From a virus: 64,000 nt of DNA. This document shows, in pieces, positions 1,156 through 27,188 of the stretch. The translations under genes were made by a program, and so were the position numbers. The stretch's first letter is position 1. The number at the start of each line of letters is the position of its first letter. Below the pieces are notes generated by a model, which searched no databases, was not told the origin of the DNA, and was given only the letters and a program-made list of their open reading frames with translations. Where the stretch lies: IMG/VR virus record IMGVR_UViG_3300022746_000019, positions 26,008 to 90,007 of that record, one strand, 5' to 3'.

Positions 1156-2556
1156 CTAACCTTCAATTTGACCTTGGATAACCTTAGTCGTTTGGTCTTC
1201 GGTGAGGCCTTCGTTGGGCAGATTCTGCAATACAGCAGCCCTGTCGCCAAACAGATTGGAAAGAACTCCGCTGGATGCCCGGCCTTCAACAGTCATCCTA
1301 ATGAAGGATTGCGAATCATCCAAATCTTTGGTGGTCTTCAGCATTCGGAACAGCCGGTCGACCTCTTGGGAAACATTCGGATCTGGGTATCCGCCGTTCA
1401 TTTCCTCACTAAAACGCGCAAAAGCAATGCGTTGTCCCTGCATTTCAATCATGGTATTAATCAAGGCTTTGAGTTGCTCTTTGGTCTTTACCTCGACAGG
1501 GAGTTTGAAAGCGCACTGGGTGTTGGGCTTGAAAGCGGGGCAGTTGTCGGCTACGAAGCAGGTATTGCACATACGCAGCGAGGCGGACTGGGAGGTGAGC
1601 AGCGGGACATCCTTGACCACATCGCGGCCATCTTCGTCCTTCTCAATAACGCTGGAAACCTCGACTCCGAATACCGGAAGCTGCATCATTTCGGTCTCGG
1701 AACGGGCAGAAAACTTCCGTGCCACTACCCCCGACTTATCAACATCCCCGGAGTCAAGTTCCGTGCGAGTTTCTTCATCCATTCCATCGTACCTATCAAC
1801 TATGTTCCCTGTATTAACGCGTGCCTCGTATTGGGCGTACGACCACAGGGCGAGTTTGCTTACTTCTTTGGAATCATCCTCAAGAATTTTGTTGAAGTCG
1901 AGCCCAGCCTTATCGTACATATGCGTGTACCGGGGACGCGCCTGCTCTCGCATTCGCTTCGGGTACCGGACAAGTCTAGTGCCGTCCCAGACAATAGTCT
2001 CCCCTCGCATCATGGGGGACAACCACGACATAGTGCTGGCGGTCTCTACTCGGACTTGTCGCAGGGAGTCGGGCTTGGCGCAGGCTACGGCGTGGAAGCG
2101 GGCACCTTCGCCGTGGAGGCTTTGGGTGGCTGCGGCGAGGAAGTAATTGGTCTCAATATCCTCACCCTTGATACCGATGTTCTTAACGCCTCGGTCCACC
2201 AGCTTCTCCAAGCCGGGTCGGCCGGTCTCGGCGTCCCACATATGAATGACTCGATCTCCCCAGTGCGGCAGGGGCGGGACATCGGCGTAGATGTATTCGA
2301 TACGGCTCAGGTTGAGGTCTACGAAGTCCAGATACTTGCTCTCGTAGTCATCTGGGATGTCCTCGTCCTTGGGGTGACCAGAGTAGACATGGATGCGCAT
2401 GTTGTCGGGGAAATAATCTTCCAGACGGTACTCTTTGGTCTTCGGCAGCCCGCGCTTGTAGGCTCGCCAGAATGAAAACCCGACATTCGAAATGCCGGAT
2501 TCTTCGAGTATTACGCGGTTCGACGGTACATCGGAACCTAGGTAGACAATTTTCAT
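1156..2556 (-). CDS. TGT (tRNA-guanine transglycosylase)-like fold protein with degenerate catalytic motifs and a C-terminal Cys-rich domain
   Basis: 466 aa. Motif order resembles phage TGT-like proteins (VYLG..FSF; VYSG~LDSG; IGIKG; FHAVA~HGFG; TASTMSW~VDSTSW). C-terminal CNTC-x5-C-x8-C. Confidence 0.5.
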   Translation of the reverse strand: MKIVYLGSDVPSNRVILEESGISNVGFSFWRAYKRGLPKTKEYRLEDYFPDNMRIHVYSGHPKDEDIPDDYESKYLDFVDLNLSRIEYIYADVPPLPHWGDRVIHMWDAETGRPGLEKLVDRGVKNIGIKGEDIETNYFLAAATQSLHGEGARFHAVACAKPDSLRQVRVETASTMSWLSPMMRGETIVWDGTRLVRYPKRMREQARPRYTHMYDKAGLDFNKILEDDSKEVSKLALWSYAQYEARVNTGNIVDRYDGMDEETRTELDSGDVDKSGVVARKFSARSETEMMQLPVFGVEVSSVIEKDEDGRDVVKDVPLLTSQSASLRMCNTCFVADNCPAFKPNTQCAFKLPVEVKTKEQLKALINTMIEMQGQRIAFARFSEEMNGGYPDPNVSQEVDRLFRMLKTTKDLDDSQSFIRMTVEGRASSGVLSNLFGDRAAVLQNLPNEGLTEDQTTKVIQGQIEG

Positions 2557-3017
2557 TTAACGCGGTCGTCCTCCGCGTACAGTCCTTGCTGCCGTCCAAG
2601 TTCGGCAATGATGTCATCCCACGAGGCTCGGTTCCTGCCGTCAGGTCGGAACTCTGGGCGGATGTACATTGGGTGCAAGAACAGGAATGTGTTAAGCCCA
2701 GCCTCAAGCAGTCGGGTTGCCAGTTCAACATCGGCGGTAATAACCAAATCTACTCGGCCTCTGGCACGGCAATATTCAACAAGCTTGAAGTCTTGATCTT
2801 CTTTGCCCGGAAGCACGGAGTAATCCACCATGTCGTCCACAGTGCCAATGTTCACAGACTTAAGCCAGCGGTCGGTGTCGCGGTTGTCCTTGGACAGGAC
2901 GGTGACTTTCTTAGAGTCTTTGACCGCGTTAAGGATGGCGGTAACTTCGTAGATGGGCGAACCCTTGGGGTTACGCAATACATCGTCCAAAAAAATCAAA
3001 AGCATATGTTTGTCCAA
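2553..3017 (-). CDS. HAD-superfamily-like protein with degenerate motif I
   Basis: 154 aa; LIFLDDVL (cf. hhDxDGVL), VTVLS, WL, DLVITAD; overlaps the next gene by 4 nt. Confidence 0.5.
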   Translation of the reverse strand: MDKHMLLIFLDDVLRNPKGSPIYEVTAILNAVKDSKKVTVLSKDNRDTDRWLKSVNIGTVDDMVDYSVLPGKEDQDFKLVEYCRARGRVDLVITADVELATRLLEAGLNTFLFLHPMYIRPEFRPDGRNRASWDDIIAELGRQQGLYAEDDRVK

Positions 3018-3035
3018 CCGTCGTATAGACGTAGT

Positions 3036-3974
3036 TTAGTGGGTTCGGTACTGGGATGCAGCGCGGCGAATCAGCGTGGCTGCGTCGGGGAGTTCCACCC
3101 CGTACAAGGAAACATCAGACTCTTTCTGAGCCTTCTTTACCAAGTCTTTAAGGGACTTCATAGCCTGGACAGTTCCAGACGCCTTACCACTCTGCCACCT
3201 GAAATTGGCAAAGTCGGAGTAACCGGCACCTTTAGGGCTGAATGCTTGGGTCCGACCTCCGTGAATTTCCTCAAACAATGCCGCGCCCTGTTTGGCGGCC
3301 AGCAACAGGGCTGTCTGGGCGTTACTGGTAGTGATTGCATCACGCGCCATGGTCAAATCATTAAGGGCTTGCTGGTAACGGGAAACGATGTCCTGCGCCA
3401 TTCTGGCGTCACGGTTTGCCTCAGAAAACCAATGCTCAGGGAATTTGGTCTCGTCTGCCGTTGGCTCTACGGTCCAATCGTCACGCGTCAGGGAGTACGC
3501 GGCGTAGGGCTTGATAGTTACAATATCGCTGGCGGTATTGACAAAAAATGTCAACTCAAACGCGCCCATGAACTCTTCGGTGGTGGGGTGAACATCCTCG
3601 CGAAACGCTTCGTTCATCATGTCGGCAATCTCTTTGTCAGACATACCAAAGTAACGGGTGTTTGCTTCGCGAAACGCTACGAAATTAACCCCTACCAGAC
3701 AATCCAAGTCTCCGGGCGAACGATGAGCAGTCCACTGGTACGAAACGCCCGATCCAGCCAACCATACGGTAGTCCAAGACTCTGGGCTGGAGTAATACTG
3801 GTTTAGGTGGCCGTACAAAACGCCTAGGACAGCGTTGCGAACAGACGGAATAAGTTTGGAGCCCCGGAACAGACGCGGGTCCAACATCAACGCTGGCGCT
3901 GAAAAGTAGGATGTCTGCGACTCTACAATCTGTACCGGGGAAGCCTGCGACCTCAGGGCTTCATAAAGGTCCAC
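3036..3974 (-). CDS. Pol-beta superfamily nucleotidyltransferase
   Basis: WLAGSGVSYQW...GDLDCLV (GS..DxD) plus a third acidic residue in ELTFFVN. Confidence 0.75.
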   Translation of the reverse strand: MDLYEALRSQASPVQIVESQTSYFSAPALMLDPRLFRGSKLIPSVRNAVLGVLYGHLNQYYSSPESWTTVWLAGSGVSYQWTAHRSPGDLDCLVGVNFVAFREANTRYFGMSDKEIADMMNEAFREDVHPTTEEFMGAFELTFFVNTASDIVTIKPYAAYSLTRDDWTVEPTADETKFPEHWFSEANRDARMAQDIVSRYQQALNDLTMARDAITTSNAQTALLLAAKQGAALFEEIHGGRTQAFSPKGAGYSDFANFRWQSGKASGTVQAMKSLKDLVKKAQKESDVSLYGVELPDAATLIRRAASQYRTH

Positions 3975-22379: not shown

Positions 22380-22905
22380 CGTACCAATCCATCGTAGAAA
22401 CTACCATTGCTTCAAGTTCGTCTTTGCCAAAGTTATTTCGAAGAATATTGTCAAACTTCCAACCGGTCATATTTGATTCTGAAATGTGTTCATTGACTGG
22501 GCCAACGCCTTTTCGATCAATGCGCCAGACAGTGCCGCCCAATCTTATGATTGCGGCGGCCTCTTCTCGAAACCGCACATCGGAAAAAACCACTCGTTCT
22601 TCTGGGTTGAGCGACTCTGTGGCTAACTTTACCCATACATCTTTACCGAACTGCTCCTTGGCAAACTCTGTGCCAAACACCTGCAACAAACGGCGTACTT
22701 CTGGATTTCCTTTTGCAACTTGCCAGCCGTACTCGTCAACAACATCCTGTAGCCGAACCGCTGTGTCAATCATTGGGTTGATAGCGTACAAGCCTTTACG
22801 AATGGGATCAGCAAACGCCCTTTTGTCGTACCCGTATCTGGCCACCAAAATGTCAGCAACGGTGTCTTTTCCGGCTCCCGCGTAACCTGATAATCCGATA
22901 ATCAA
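22345..22905 (-). CDS. Deoxynucleoside monophosphate kinase
   Basis: GLSGYAGAGKDT, FADP, RRLLQVFGTE, SDVRF..E, HISE. Confidence 0.9.
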   Translation of the reverse strand: MIIGLSGYAGAGKDTVADILVARYGYDKRAFADPIRKGLYAINPMIDTAVRLQDVVDEYGWQVAKGNPEVRRLLQVFGTEFAKEQFGKDVWVKLATESLNPEERVVFSDVRFREEAAAIIRLGGTVWRIDRKGVGPVNEHISESNMTGWKFDNILRNNFGKDELEAMVVSTMDWYDVYGNPSPLPA

Positions 22906-23828
22906 GTTAGGGCCCTTTCTCCTCTTAGTGAATGCCGTGCGTTATCAATGCCAAAAACTATCTCATTTTTGCTCATACCGCCAACATCCTTGCAGTCAAT
23001 CCCAGAATAATTGAAAAACACGCACTCAAACCCGTACTTAATGGAAAAATTAAGCAGAGCCTTGGACGACTCAACCCCGGCCTCATCGTGGTCCATAGCG
23101 ACAACCAGACGGTCAGCTCCCCGCAGTAGGTTTACCTGCGCCTTGGAAACCAGTGCCCCATAGGTGGCTACCCCTCCGCTAATGCCCACGGAGGCAAGCC
23201 GTACGGCGTCTAGGGGGGATTCAACAACAATCATGTCTCCGCCAGAGTACAGGTCATACCCAAACAGGGTGTTGCTCTTCTGTACGCCCTTTGGGTAGTT
23301 CTTAAAGTACCGGCCGCTTACTCCCTTTTCTTGCCACCCGAGCAGTGTGGAGGTGAGTGGGTCGCGAATGGGCAAAATCCAAGCGTCTTTGCGGGAGTCG
23401 TACTTAACGCCGTAGTCCTCCGCCGCGTCCATGGTCAAGCCTCTTCCACGCAACATATCCTGCGTGGGGGTAGTGAACGCTGCCAACATTGACTCTGTGA
23501 TAGTGGTGACTTCTTCATAGGTGGGCTTATGCGCTACGGCGCGTTCCAACCGGCGGCTAAGGCCGTCAGCAGAAGTGAGCCACTCAGCTGCATCCTCATA
23601 CGTAACACCCTGGGTGTAAGAAATAAGGGTTTGCAAACCGCCCTTAAACTGGCAGGAGAAACAGATGAAGGCGCCTGTGTCGGAATTAACCCACATAGAC
23701 GGATTGTGATCGATATGGCCTGTCCGCTCTAAGTGAGCGGGGCAGGATGTCTGCACCTCATACCCCCTAGTTGACACGACGTCTAAGCCGAGCCGAACAA
23801 GGAGGTCCTCCATCTGGTCTACTGTCAT
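22902..23828 (-). CDS. DNA primase (Zn finger plus TOPRIM)
   Basis: CPAH..CFSC; VVES..D; MDHDEAG; KDVG. Confidence 0.9.
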   Translation of the reverse strand: MTVDQMEDLLVRLGLDVVSTRGYEVQTSCPAHLERTGHIDHNPSMWVNSDTGAFICFSCQFKGGLQTLISYTQGVTYEDAAEWLTSADGLSRRLERAVAHKPTYEEVTTITESMLAAFTTPTQDMLRGRGLTMDAAEDYGVKYDSRKDAWILPIRDPLTSTLLGWQEKGVSGRYFKNYPKGVQKSNTLFGYDLYSGGDMIVVESPLDAVRLASVGISGGVATYGALVSKAQVNLLRGADRLVVAMDHDEAGVESSKALLNFSIKYGFECVFFNYSGIDCKDVGGMSKNEIVFGIDNARHSLRGERALT

Positions 23829-24004
23829 TGGTAGGTATCTTTGAGAATTTGAAGTTCGTATTCAAGCGATCTGATAGGCGCCAAATGAAGACCAACCAAT
23901 GTGTAGTTATCCACCATTTTTACAACCGCGTTGAGACACTCATTGAACCCAGCCTTGAAAACCTCTTTGTCCTCCGGGCTAAGGGCGTCGTATTTTTCAG
24001 ACAT
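23825..24004 (-). CDS. Small hypothetical protein (59 aa)
   Basis: Own translation MSEKYDALSPEDKEVFKAGFNECLNAVVKM...; overlaps both neighbours. Confidence 0.55.
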   Translation of the reverse strand: MSEKYDALSPEDKEVFKAGFNECLNAVVKMVDNYTLVGLHLAPIRSLEYELQILKDTYQ

Positions 24005-25361
24005 TGCTATCCACTGCTACCAATCTAGAGATAATCCACGATACTACTGGAACTGCGACTGCATTGCCCATTTGCTTGTACCGGGCGCTGTCTGGCTGTC
24101 CTTTGACCTCTTGCTTCTTGTAGTCGAAGCGCTCGGCCGTCCATCCGTCAGGGAAACCCTGAAGCCGTTCGCATTCGGTCGGTGTTAAGCGTCGAACAAC
24201 CGAAGTCAAAGCGCCAGTAGATTGTCGAGTTCCAGCCCTGAGCGTGTGGTGCAGCTCTTCGTTAAGTTGGTCGTTGAACTCGTCGTACCCATAAGCAAGA
24301 ACCGTGGCGCGGGTGTCTCCGCCGTTGTCAAACACATTCAATGTGGGGCTGACATCGTCTTCGCGCCATGTTTCGGCGTCTTCAGACGAGCGAGCGCGAC
24401 CAGCCTTGACAAAGGTGGCTGGTGGAAACAAGACCTGGTCATTGCCAGTGGAAATGGTCAAAGACTTTTCCACGCTCAGCAGCGGACCTTTACCGCCTCC
24501 GGCTTTGCCTTCTCGCTGACGCATAAGAACTGCGTCTGAGTCGTTAACAACGAGGTCTGTTGCATCCTTATGATCGCGAGCTTTGAGAGCGCTGGCGGTA
24601 CTGTCCTCTTCATAGTCACCAAACCCACGCATACGGTAAGTGAGGGTGTCTCTGGCGCGAGCAGCGCTGAGAGTGGGTGCTACTTCTGAATCTGGGAAGT
24701 CGTATAGTTCGAAGTTTCCCGCTCTACTACCGCCTCCAGCGCCTGCTGAAGTCGCGGTGGAAGTGTTTTGCCGCGACGGTTGGCCCGCAAAAGGATTCCC
24801 GCCGCTGCCTTCGGCGATAGCCAGTACTTGCGCAGGTAATCTTCCGTCGTCTCCAAGACATCCGACAATGAAGACACGACGGCGTCGCTGGGGGACTCCG
24901 AAATGTTGAGCGTCCAGCACCCTCCAGGAGATGCCGTACCCGCGCTCAACCAGCGCCCCGATGACGACTCCCATGTCCCGTCCTGATTTAGATGACAAGA
25001 GACCAGGGACGTTTTCGAGTACGACCCACTTCGGCTTTGTTTCGTCGAGGAGACGGCAGATTTCCCAAAAGAGACCGCTGCGTCCGCCATCCAATCCGGC
25101 ACGTTTTCCTGCAACAGAGAGGTCTTGGCAAGGGAAACCCCCGACGATGACTCCTCTGTCTGGAACAAATCCGGCTCCGATAAGTTGTTCACCTGTTACA
25201 TCCTTTACATCTTCAAACAAAGTGGTTTCTGGGAAGCGGTGCTTGAGTACTCCTCGTGCCGCTGGGTCAATCTCTACCGCCGCTGCAACCTTTGCACCGT
25301 TGGCAGTTAACGCAATGTCAAATCCGCCAACTCCGGCGAACAGTGAAACTGCTGTAAGCAT
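23997..25361 (-). CDS. DNA (cytosine-5)-methyltransferase
   Basis: FAGVGG, GFPCQD, ENVPG, QRRRRVF, RRLTPTECERLQGFP, MGNAV. Confidence 0.95.
   Translation of the reverse strand: MLTAVSLFAGVGGFDIALTANGAKVAAAVEIDPAARGVLKHRFPETTLFEDVKDVTGEQLIGAGFVPDRGVIVGGFPCQDLSVAGKRAGLDGGRSGLFWEICRLLDETKPKWVVLENVPGLLSSKSGRDMGVVIGALVERGYGISWRVLDAQHFGVPQRRRRVFIVGCLGDDGRLPAQVLAIAEGSGGNPFAGQPSRQNTSTATSAGAGGGSRAGNFELYDFPDSEVAPTLSAARARDTLTYRMRGFGDYEEDSTASALKARDHKDATDLVVNDSDAVLMRQREGKAGGGKGPLLSVEKSLTISTGNDQVLFPPATFVKAGRARSSEDAETWREDDVSPTLNVFDNGGDTRATVLAYGYDEFNDQLNEELHHTLRAGTRQSTGALTSVVRRLTPTECERLQGFPDGWTAERFDYKKQEVKGQPDSARYKQMGNAVAVPVVSWIISRLVAVDSNV
24680..25192 (-). CDS. Nested alternative-frame ORF resembling the M.EcoHK31I beta-polypeptide type
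   Basis: 170-aa same-strand ORF inside the MTase, ending SLSDVLET...KYWLSPKAAAGILLRANRRGKTLP. Confidence 0.6.
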   Translation of the reverse strand: MNNLSEPDLFQTEESSSGVSLAKTSLLQENVPDWMADAAVSFGKSAVSSTKQSRSGSYSKTSLVSCHLNQDGTWESSSGRWLSAGTASPGGCWTLNISESPSDAVVSSLSDVLETTEDYLRKYWLSPKAAAGILLRANRRGKTLPPRLQQALEAVVERETSNYTTSQIQK

Positions 25362-25373
25362 GTGTAACCTTTT

Positions 25374-25556
25374 CTACTTAGCGCAGTGAATGCAGTGGGG
25401 TGGGCAGGAACCTGTCTCGATTCCATCCCGCTTGTTTATTAAAATTTCAAGAAGTGTGTCAAACAGATACAGCTCCCTAAAAGTCAGTTTATTGAAATCA
25501 TTGGAATTAACCAAATTGACCATCTTCTTGAACTTCCTAATCCAGCGAGGGGACAT
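25374..25556 (-). CDS. Small hypothetical protein
   Basis: ATG immediately after the DnaB stop; ends CPPHCIHC. Confidence 0.5.
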   Translation of the reverse strand: MSPRWIRKFKKMVNLVNSNDFNKLTFRELYLFDTLLEILINKRDGIETGSCPPHCIHCAK

Positions 25557-25557
25557 A

Positions 25558-26790
25558 CTACAAGTCCGTCCCATCAATCTCGCGGAACCGGCCTTCGGCC
25601 CACTGCCAATCCAGAGTCGCCTCGGCTGGCCCTGAGTTACGGCTGGCGACAACTCTCAACAGTCGGGTATCGTCAATTTCCTCGTCTTCACGCTGAAGCC
25701 CGAGAATAACGTCTGCGTCCTGGAAGAACGAGGACGAGTAGCCAATGGCATCCGCGGTTACTTTTCCGCCCTTCATCTTCCATGTCAAGACCTGGGTGGA
25801 AATAACTATGGGGAGTTGGTACTTCTGGGCAAGACGCTTGAGTGATCGAGTGATGTTGGTAAGAGCCTGAGGGGTGTTGGCCTCGCCGCTCTGTTCGTCA
25901 ATCATCAGGTAGACGCCGTCAATGAACACAATGTCTGGTTGGAGCGTCTGAATCTTGCTGGCAATACCAGATACTGTCTGGCCAGCGGCGGAGTCCACCA
26001 GCCAAAACTTGTGCTCCACATTGTCAAGGTTCTTGAGAATCCTCTGGTAACGGGCCTCTTCTTCTTGAGTCAGAGTTCCGGTTAAGAGCCTGTGGTGAGA
26101 GATTAGGGAGCGCATGGCGTCATATCGGTTGAGCTGCTCATGGTTGCTCATTTCAAAAGACTGAAACATAGGAACCTTTGACTGCTCTCGGTGAATGTTC
26201 AGCGCAACCTGCAACGCCAAGGTTGACTTACCTGTCTTGGGCGGGGCAATGATGACAACAAGCTGTCCGTCCTGCAGTCCGCTGGTCGCAGCGTCAATTG
26301 TCGGAAAACCTGTGGGAAGCCCCCTAAGACCGTTAGGAAGGTTCTTTCGCTCAACATACTCTTCCCAGCGCTTGAGGGGTTCATCCGTAAGATCGACGTC
26401 ATTGGTCTGGGTTAATCCGCCCTCTTCAAGGGATACAAGCCCGCGCTGAAGTACCAGCAGCGCCTTCTCGTGGTCCTTCTGCTTCTCCATGCTGTCGATT
26501 GCGTCGGACAACATCTTGGTTGTAGCAAACCGGCGCTGTGCGTCAAGAACAGAATCAATCAGGTACTCAAGAGAATCTTCGGAAGCTGCAAACTCATAAG
26601 TCGGATAGTTGGATTTGACCACATCCATGCTTGGGGATTCGCCGTACTTGACAAAATGTTCCCTGACGAATGTCCACATCCGCTGGTCTTCATCGTCAGC
26701 AAACCAACTGGTGTTTACGCCTCGGCTAAGCAGCGCTGAAACATCTCGATCGTTAATGGCTCTACTTAGGAGCCGGCGCTCATTGTTCAT
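25558..26790 (-). CDS. dnaB: DnaB-like replicative helicase
   Basis: PTGFPTID, APPKTGKS, SFEMS, FIDG, SLKRLA, STQ, QDADVI. Confidence 0.92.
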   Translation of the reverse strand: MNNERRLLSRAINDRDVSALLSRGVNTSWFADDEDQRMWTFVREHFVKYGESPSMDVVKSNYPTYEFAASEDSLEYLIDSVLDAQRRFATTKMLSDAIDSMEKQKDHEKALLVLQRGLVSLEEGGLTQTNDVDLTDEPLKRWEEYVERKNLPNGLRGLPTGFPTIDAATSGLQDGQLVVIIAPPKTGKSTLALQVALNIHREQSKVPMFQSFEMSNHEQLNRYDAMRSLISHHRLLTGTLTQEEEARYQRILKNLDNVEHKFWLVDSAAGQTVSGIASKIQTLQPDIVFIDGVYLMIDEQSGEANTPQALTNITRSLKRLAQKYQLPIVISTQVLTWKMKGGKVTADAIGYSSSFFQDADVILGLQREDEEIDDTRLLRVVASRNSGPAEATLDWQWAEGRFREIDGTDL

Positions 26791-27188
26791 TAAAAATCCA
26801 ATCCCCAATGACCGTAGCGAAGAAATCTAGTGGGAATGTCTATCACACCGGCCACCTCTGGGCGAAACGGAAGTTCCGCCACCAAATGCTCGGAGGACTG
26901 GTACACCGAAAAATACCTAAATGGGTTAGTACCCATTTCGTCCATAGCCTCAACTAATTCTTTGAGCGCTTCTTCGTCTAAATCAAAGGATACTAATTCA
27001 AGACTGACGGAGTTACGATCCGCGTAAAGGTACAGGCGGCTCAAAACTTGTCGGTTGTATACATAAGACTTTTCTGGAACCTTAATGAATTTAAGAACCT
27101 TTTTCACAGTAACCTGCTCGTCTCGGATTACATCAAGAGACACGAGAACGCGTTTGGTCAAACTATTGCTCAAATCATTGTTCTGCAT
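26790..27188 (-). CDS. Hypothetical protein (possible degenerate HAD fold)
   Basis: 132 aa, translationally coupled to dnaB. Confidence 0.6.
   Translation of the reverse strand: MQNNDLSNSLTKRVLVSLDVIRDEQVTVKKVLKFIKVPEKSYVYNRQVLSRLYLYADRNSVSLELVSFDLDEEALKELVEAMDEMGTNPFRYFSVYQSSEHLVAELPFRPEVAGVIDIPTRFLRYGHWGLDF

Follow-up and report, generated by a model that had tools for sequence, protein, structure and literature searches.

What does a long open reading frame (ORF) mean when it lies, on the same strand, wholly inside the gene of a well-known enzyme? This question is raised by a stretch of viral DNA of 64,000 nucleotides (hereafter the window), which corresponds to positions 26,008 to 90,007 of the IMG/VR virus record IMGVR_UViG_3300022746_000019. 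On its minus strand, the gene of a C5 cytosine DNA methyltransferase contains a 170-codon ORF in another frame. A preliminary description, made from the letters of the window alone, placed this ORF over methyltransferase motifs IV-VIII, compared it with the small chain of the two-polypeptide enzyme M.EcoHK31I, and left three roles for its product, namely an accessory subunit, a frameshift-derived alternative C-terminus, or a specificity module. We found that the nested ORF is almost certainly a real, selected gene, and that its product is probably translated separately and provided in trans to the methyltransferase as an accessory subunit. The elements on which this answer depends are as follows.

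23997..25361, minus strand: the main ORF, a complete single-chain C5 cytosine DNA methyltransferase of 454 aa with motifs I-X (from the ORF list, profiles, and fold).
24680..25192, minus strand: the nested ORF of 170 aa in the +1 frame of the methyltransferase gene, with a GTG start and its own stop, which is included (from the ORF list and homologues).
25201..25204, minus strand: AGGA, a Shine-Dalgarno-like core 8 nt 5' of the nested GTG, where the main frame reads K53-D54 (sequence aaaggatgtaacagGTG).

The nested ORF was found where it had been described, and it ended with the protein-like block that had been pointed out (...SLSDVLETTEDYLRKYWLSPKAAAGILLRANRRGKTLPPRLQQALEAVV...). It covered main residues 57-227, and thus motif IV (P77-C78-Q79), motif VI (E116-N117-V118), motif VIII (Q158-R162), and about 65 codons beyond. 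According to the preliminary description, stops in this frame in homologous methyltransferases would speak against a nested gene. Stops were counted in a region bounded solely by main-frame motifs IV and VIII, which could be scored in 69 of 76 non-redundant relatives (in the remaining 7 the motif pattern was not matched). The +1 frame of this region contained 3 stops, compared with 171.1 expected from synonymous-codon shuffles, and 67 of the 69 loci were fully open. The +2 frame of the same region in the same loci contained 251 stops, compared with 227.5 expected. For the 28 loci that were found through the C-terminal block alone, the +1 frame held 3 stops versus 63.2 expected. A cruder stop count (0 vs 290.7 expected) was circular because the ORF is open by definition, and it was given no weight.

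The preliminary description had also proposed that constraint in the overlap be examined across homologues. This was done with a codon alignment of 76 nested genes, and it revealed a switch of codon phase along the overlap, the nested frame being the conserved one past motif VIII. The nested ORF was accordingly divided into three parts, listed here together with the enzyme motif that falls into the middle one.

24968..25192, minus strand: nested residues 1-75, a 'passenger' over main motifs IV-VI, predicted to be disordered (codon phase and fold).
24851..24967, minus strand: nested residues 76-114, over main motifs VII-VIII, with both frames constrained (codon phase).
24876..24890, minus strand: main-frame motif VIII (Q158-R162), of which the nested reading is part of ..SESPSDAVV.. 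(sequence and invariant columns).
24725..24850, minus strand: nested residues 115-156, a conserved and predicted helical block KYxLSxKAxxGILRRAxRRGKxLPxxLxxAL in which the nested frame appears to be the selected one (codon phase, invariants, and fold).

Over nested residues 13-75, amino-acid diversity was 0.37 in the main protein versus 0.66 in the nested protein, and the most variable nucleotide was main position 3 (0.56). Over the nested core 125-152, the corresponding diversities were 0.69 and 0.30, and the most variable nucleotide was nested position 3 (0.58). Four residues, A129, G132, I133, and P145, had codons with invariant first and second nested positions and a freely varying third; at R136 and L148 the amino acid never varied and the nested third position was again free. 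Between these parts, nested residues 76-114 showed nucleotide diversities of 0.15, 0.33, and 0.26 at the three codon positions, so that both frames were constrained. The doubly constrained nested positions were W81, G85, L95, E99, L109, L113, and E114, among which W81, G85, L95, E99, and L109 were fixed or nearly fixed at all three codon positions. In 70 nested sequences (numbered as in the window protein), L109, L113, A129, G132, I133, R136, P145, and L148 were invariant. Considering the switch of codon phase together with the amino-acid diversities, the first part of the nested protein (residues 13-75) is, as far as codon phase can tell, a passenger of the enzyme motifs (SLAKTS, for example, is FPCQDLS read one base later), and the last part is under purifying selection of its own. 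Likewise, past motif VIII the main proteins have a conserved stretch of low complexity, which is, in our reading of the alignment, the shadow of the nested frame. Judged by codon phase and stop counts, a chance origin of the nested ORF is excluded.

The nested gene was widely distributed. In a translated search, it was detected in 130 of 50,697 phage records (E<=1), and the best phage matches came from cluster J mycobacteriophages, Omega among them, with 52-54% identity across residues 8-156 (E 3e-28 to 3e-27). Relatives were also found as 109 metagenomic proteins, mostly of 145-170 residues, and at least 565 viral contigs encoded a nested relative. At E<=1e-3, a profile built from 70 members matched 6998 protein clusters, and at E<=1e-30 it still matched 1243. 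The block was kept in phages of actinobacteria, proteobacteria, and firmicutes. In all 82 related phage and viral loci (80 viral contigs, Omega, and virus Rctr41k), the homologue lay in the +1 frame over the N-domain of a methyltransferase, and the same was true of 79 of 80 bacterial-genome loci found with P0100 of Pseudomonas, the most divergent small homologue. P0100 had been considered as a stand-alone copy, which was rejected on this result. Among 162 loci, no nested copy was found apart from a methyltransferase gene.

Standard gene callers forbid overlaps of this kind, and because of this rule the nested protein is missing from records in which its gene is intact. Omega and Rctr41k carry intact nested ORFs of 157 and 159 codons within their annotated methyltransferase genes, and the nested ORFs themselves are unannotated. 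In the P1-like Escherichia phage JL22 (L163), an unannotated nested ORF of 162 codons (1781-2269) with the same block lies inside the 754-residue dmt (1480-3744). Unannotated nested genes were also present within the methyltransferase genes of Cronobacter phage JK004 and Streptococcus phage Javan261.

Starts of the nested genes were examined in 76 loci, with duplex energies computed against a generic anti-Shine-Dalgarno string. The start codon was ATG in 37 loci, TTG in 28, and GTG in 11. In most loci, a purine-rich AAGGAG, GGAGG, or GGGGG stood 6-9 bases before the first nested start. The mean duplex energy upstream of the nested start was -6.15 kcal/mol, compared with -2.89 kcal/mol in all other windows of the same genes, and the nested-start site belonged to the best 10% of its own gene's windows in 53% of the loci. 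The site in the window, with a duplex energy of -6.3 kcal/mol and rank 0.149 within its own gene, was moderate and preceded a GTG.

Does the enzyme need a second chain at all? The main ORF matched PF00145 (9.3e-66, 222.9 bits, cut-off 22) and TIGR00675 (5.4e-67, 226.8 bits, curated cut-off 100.65). One main chain contains, in canonical order, FAGVGG, PCQ, ENV, QRRRR, RRLTPTECERLQGFP, and GNAV, as recognized from the sequence and the invariant columns; these we take to be motifs I, IV, VI, VIII, IX, and X. Within motif IX, R390, R391, E396, R399, and L400 were invariant in the alignment of main proteins.

24162..24194, minus strand: main-frame motif IX (R390-L400), a predicted contact with the nested chain (invariant columns and complex model).

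The structural model of the main chain aligned with M.HhaI (2i9k_A) at Z 30.3, with a root-mean-square deviation of 1.7 A over 232 aligned residues of 327 and 32% identity, and it contained a long low-confidence stretch at residues 189-311. The motif IX/X-like end of the main ORF, which the preliminary description had recognized, is thus borne out. Since motifs IX and X are both present in the main chain, the nested chain differs in kind from the beta chain of EcoHK31I, a motif-IX chain.

When the nested chain was folded alone with 70 relatives, residues 1-60 were predicted to be disordered (predicted local distance difference test, pLDDT, about 47-52) and residues 61-100 were weakly predicted. 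Helices were modelled across 109-168 (127-140 and 146-168), with pLDDT of 88-97 from about residue 120, the model being confident solely in 120-170. A complex of the 454-residue enzyme with the 170-residue nested protein was then modelled, and it received an interaction prediction score from aligned errors (ipSAE) of 0.80 (0.79, 0.82, and 0.80 in the separate runs), compared with 0.00 for the best of 3 controls. The mark used for this score was passed by 116 of 157 solved complexes and by 2 of 215 mismatched pairs in the calibration of the tool, rates that are approximate here, where custom alignments were used. At least 78% of the contacts were common to the runs, and the pLDDT of the partner was at least 64. 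In the modelled interface, nested residues 66-158 would contact main residues 122-182, 314-360, 386-400, 438, and 442. The first of these main segments comprises the helix and strand near motifs VI-VIII, where nested 83-87 lies alongside main 143-150; the second comprises the sole confidently folded strands of the variable region; and at motif IX (main 386-400), main 390 and 393 touch nested 123. By a hand count, the predicted interface includes 22 of the 24 nested positions that are invariant or nearly so. The complex model therefore supports binding of the nested chain to the enzyme.

Moreover, the nested sequence is found joined to methyltransferase parts in some relatives. In four proteins (P0199, P0204, P0230, and P0250), a whole nested-type sequence is followed in frame by a recognition-like region and by the C-terminal end of PF00145 with motifs IX-X (from about profile positions 238-258 to 322-323 of 324). 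These fusions include the passenger part with its motif shadows, and thus they too would overlap the gene of an N-domain. In P0012 and P0016, the nested protein continues into the middle sequence of a methyltransferase. Regarding the layout of the enzyme, 64 of the 82 related loci had one chain like the window, 14 were split into an N-terminal ORF and a motif IX-X ORF, and 4 gave no C-terminal match. A single stop (TAG at 3454-3456 in L036 and TAA at 3469-3471 in L067) separates the nested ORF from the motif IX-X ORF in two of the split loci, where both ORFs are in one frame, and P0012, P0016, P0121, and P0128 are read-throughs without that stop. From the fusions and the single-stop split loci it follows that the nested protein is, by sequence, the same module that heads the second chain of a split enzyme in some relatives. 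In the window, on this comparison, the module stayed a small separate chain, and the remainder is joined to the catalytic chain. Classification by motif patterns of the 145 best new representatives from the profile search gave 139 with the block alone, 5 with a downstream motif IX, and 1 that was frame-switched.

Some relatives showed other arrangements. A search for fused long forms gave a single match among 2572 candidates, P0110, which switches into the nested frame and has no motifs VIII-X; it looks like a broken gene or an error and was rejected. Searching the viral contigs with the fusion-type P0250 gave a single locus, L168, that did not show the two-frame layout of the fusions. L168 encodes a short one-chain methyltransferase (1709-2680) with almost no variable region, and its nested ORF (1995-2498) keeps SLSEVLE..KYYLS without the GILRRAxRRGK part, so the block is degenerate; this could be a natural loss of the block along with the recognition region. 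In the metagenomic proteins P0056 and P0066, the nested-type block is preceded by a fused N-terminal domain of some 150 residues, which contains a GLVDGEGC stretch, LAGLIDADG-like by eye, and has no Pfam match; these proteins could represent a homing-endonuclease gene inserted into the nested frame of a methyltransferase gene. P0209 (546 aa) has nested-type residues 8-157 followed by about 390 residues without a Pfam family or methyltransferase motif, which points to an unrelated fusion or to an artefact of gene calling. Finally, in Faecalibacterium phage FP_Toutatis (L165), the coding sequence 823-1428, annotated as 'DNA-cytosine methyltransferase', contains motifs IV and VI and then a nested-type block in the same frame, without motif VIII. 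A second coding sequence (1470-2234) contains motifs IX-X and then a motif I-like GSLFDGIGGF. A permuted or tandem layout, or else an error of frame, seems to underlie this picture.

Taken as a mechanism, an accessory subunit could work as follows. Ribosomes would start at the nested GTG behind the Shine-Dalgarno-like AGGA within the methyltransferase message and produce a protein of 170 residues. Its first 75 or so residues would be an unconstrained, probably disordered leader, present because the start sits upstream, within a strongly conserved part of the enzyme gene. The functional part would be residues 76-158 or thereabouts, a short strand region plus a helical hairpin, which is predicted to join the methyltransferase encoded on the same DNA as an additional small subunit. 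As modelled, it contributes a strand beside the motif VII strand of the catalytic domain, and its helices rest on the recognition-domain strands and motif IX. The nested chain may thereby hold the two enzyme lobes together, being a part of the enzyme that is provided in trans. Translation from the GTG, binding, and any need for the chain in methylation are what we infer from these data.

How do other explanations fare? That the ORF is untranslated, its openness and conservation being by-products of main-frame conservation and base composition, is hardly credible to us. Nested residues 13-107 do largely mirror main-frame motifs, as the SLAKTS reading illustrates. However, past motif VIII it is the nested third position that varies and the nested protein that is better conserved, stops are missing from the +1 frame alone and not from +2, and the block persists across phages of three bacterial groups. 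It is also very improbable that ribosomes shift from the main to the nested frame past motif VIII, giving a truncated methyltransferase with an alternative C-terminus and no start of its own, the second of the roles considered at the outset. It is true that the N-domain is joined to the nested block in some database proteins (P0019, P0067, P0068, P0106, and P0110) and likewise in the annotated FP_Toutatis coding sequence. But the joins fall at motif IV, after IV, before VI, or before VIII, and such varying places are expected of indels or assembly errors rather than of a conserved shift site. Furthermore, the open +1 frame reaches about 100 codons upstream from the block, as far as a start preceded by a Shine-Dalgarno-like site, none of which a shift would need, and the main frame shows no stop or obvious pause signal (no formal scan for slippery sites was made).

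A more serious rival, which we nevertheless consider unlikely, accepts that the nested protein is real and selected and gives it a job outside the enzyme complex: DNA-binding or regulatory timing of the methyltransferase or early genes, or counter-defence, after an origin by overprinting. In favour of such a job, the conserved block forms a basic helical hairpin (RRAxRRGK) in the model and could contact nucleic acid, our searches linked the protein to no known family or fold, and nothing seems to be missing from the main chain. An overlapping gene, moreover, cannot leave its host gene, so that its constant company with the enzyme is uninformative. Against this job stand the in-frame fusions of the module to the recognition part and motifs IX-X, the predicted complex with its score far above that of the best control and most conserved positions buried, and the lack of a stand-alone copy among the loci surveyed. 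These are the observations, together with the switch of codon phase, that led us to favour the accessory subunit among the three roles first considered; a specificity module is conceivable as well.

Several points weigh against that preference. The main chain has all ten motifs and yields an M.HhaI-like model without the nested chain, so it may work alone. The score of the complex is the model's own confidence and could reflect a memory of single-chain methyltransferases. Constant co-occurrence with the enzyme is expected of any overprinted gene, whatever its job; the conservation of nested residues 76-114 is partly forced by main-frame motifs VII-VIII; and the window's Shine-Dalgarno site is just moderate, with GTG as the start codon. 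The family searches were also negative. The nested protein had no match in Pfam at E<=1, PF00145 included, and no family in NCBIfam. Its sequence gave 3 matches in PDB, the best with E 0.25 and none a methyltransferase; the profile of 70 nested sequences gave 0 matches in PDB at E<=10; and none of the 119 Foldseek matches of its model in PDB at E<=10 reached E<=0.001. A presumed likeness of the block to the segment after motif VIII of ordinary C5 enzymes was tried with E. coli Dcm and rejected (hhalign probability 0.1).

Automatic groupings did contain relatives of the protein. The PHROG profile phrog_16143, labelled 'DNA methyltransferase' (139 profile positions), matched nested residues 41-129 (1.5e-9), and the nearest ESM Atlas clusters were viral 'hypothetical protein' clusters at 0.96. 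Such groupings, phrog_16143 and the metagenomic clusters alike, differ from the family described here in that the label is inherited and says nothing about encoding within a gene or about function. The nested protein of the window shows the features of its own family, that is, a +1 frame over motifs IV-VIII, a conserved C-terminal block, and purifying selection on that block.

The surroundings of the gene belong to a replication module on the minus strand. The methyltransferase gene is flanked by a DnaB-type helicase (25558..26808) and a primase (22902..23828), with an SNF2 helicase and a family A polymerase farther along. The virus record has 90,007 bases, is 94% complete according to the CheckV estimate, and contains one such methyltransferase and one nested gene. 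Two further short ORFs without a Pfam family lie beside it on the minus strand. One, of 59 codons (23825-24004), shares 8 bases with the end of the methyltransferase gene and 4 with the beginning of the primase gene, and these overlaps with both neighbours suggest tight translational coupling along the operon. The other, of 92 codons (25374-25652), lies between the helicase and methyltransferase genes and overlaps the end of the former by 95 bases.

To our knowledge, the nested gene is among the largest and most widespread same-strand overlapping genes in double-stranded DNA phages, and the gene that hosts it belongs to a textbook enzyme family. What follows if the small chain is part of the enzyme? 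When phage methyltransferases are cloned or recoded, their activity may then be lost or changed for a hidden reason, and specificity assignments made from expressed genes may hinge on whether native DNA was used. A wider claim can be put forward tentatively, and we hold it with slightly less than even conviction: that thousands of 'single-gene' C5 methyltransferases of phages and prophages, P1-like phages and cluster J mycobacteriophages among them, are two- or three-chain enzymes whose +1-frame chain is needed for activity, stability, or site choice. If this were true, recoding or codon-optimising such a gene would silently destroy the enzyme, and the overlap would force the joint inheritance and expression of both chains. 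The locus also offers a clean natural case of two proteins on one sequence, in which constraint passes from one frame to the other within about 40 codons.

Is such an arrangement already known? A full-text literature search, which included PMC3025963, gave no description of the nested family; most subscription journals lay outside its coverage, and a prior description is possible. Among known systems, the closest in layout is the one named in the preliminary description. In M.EcoHK31I of E. coli (YGGCCR), an alpha/beta C5 methyltransferase, the gene of the large chain also encodes, in another frame, the small chain; motif IX is absent from alpha and is provided by beta, and both chains must associate (PMC2836561). 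As in that enzyme, the second polypeptide of the window is encoded wholly within the large gene in another frame, and to this extent the comparison stands. It does not extend to the supply of motif IX, for the main chain of the window has R390-R391-L-T-P...E396 itself, and its nested chain, compared by description, is a different, unnamed block past motif VIII. The beta chain of EcoHK31I has about 60 residues; unlike it, the nested chain of the window is far longer, begins with a long unconstrained leader, and has relatives in thousands of phage genes.

A second comparison is with split C5 methyltransferases of the M.AquI type, in which alpha holds motifs I-VIII and beta holds motifs IX-X. The 14 split loci among the 82 resemble this type, and in some relatives nested-type sequence heads the second chain. 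Unlike it, the enzyme of the window is one chain of 454 residues from motif I to motif X, and unlike either M.AquI half, the nested ORF stops before the recognition part and would thus correspond to a third, small polypeptide. Finally, according to a review, overprinted genes are known in small viruses, together with a few validated same-strand overlapping genes in bacteria (PMC8227390). The locus studied here shares with them that two proteins come from one DNA stretch and that constraint is relaxed reciprocally along the overlap. It differs from them in that the overlap occurs in a large double-stranded DNA phage and in prophages, that the partner is a well-known enzyme, and that the second product appears to be part of this same enzyme.

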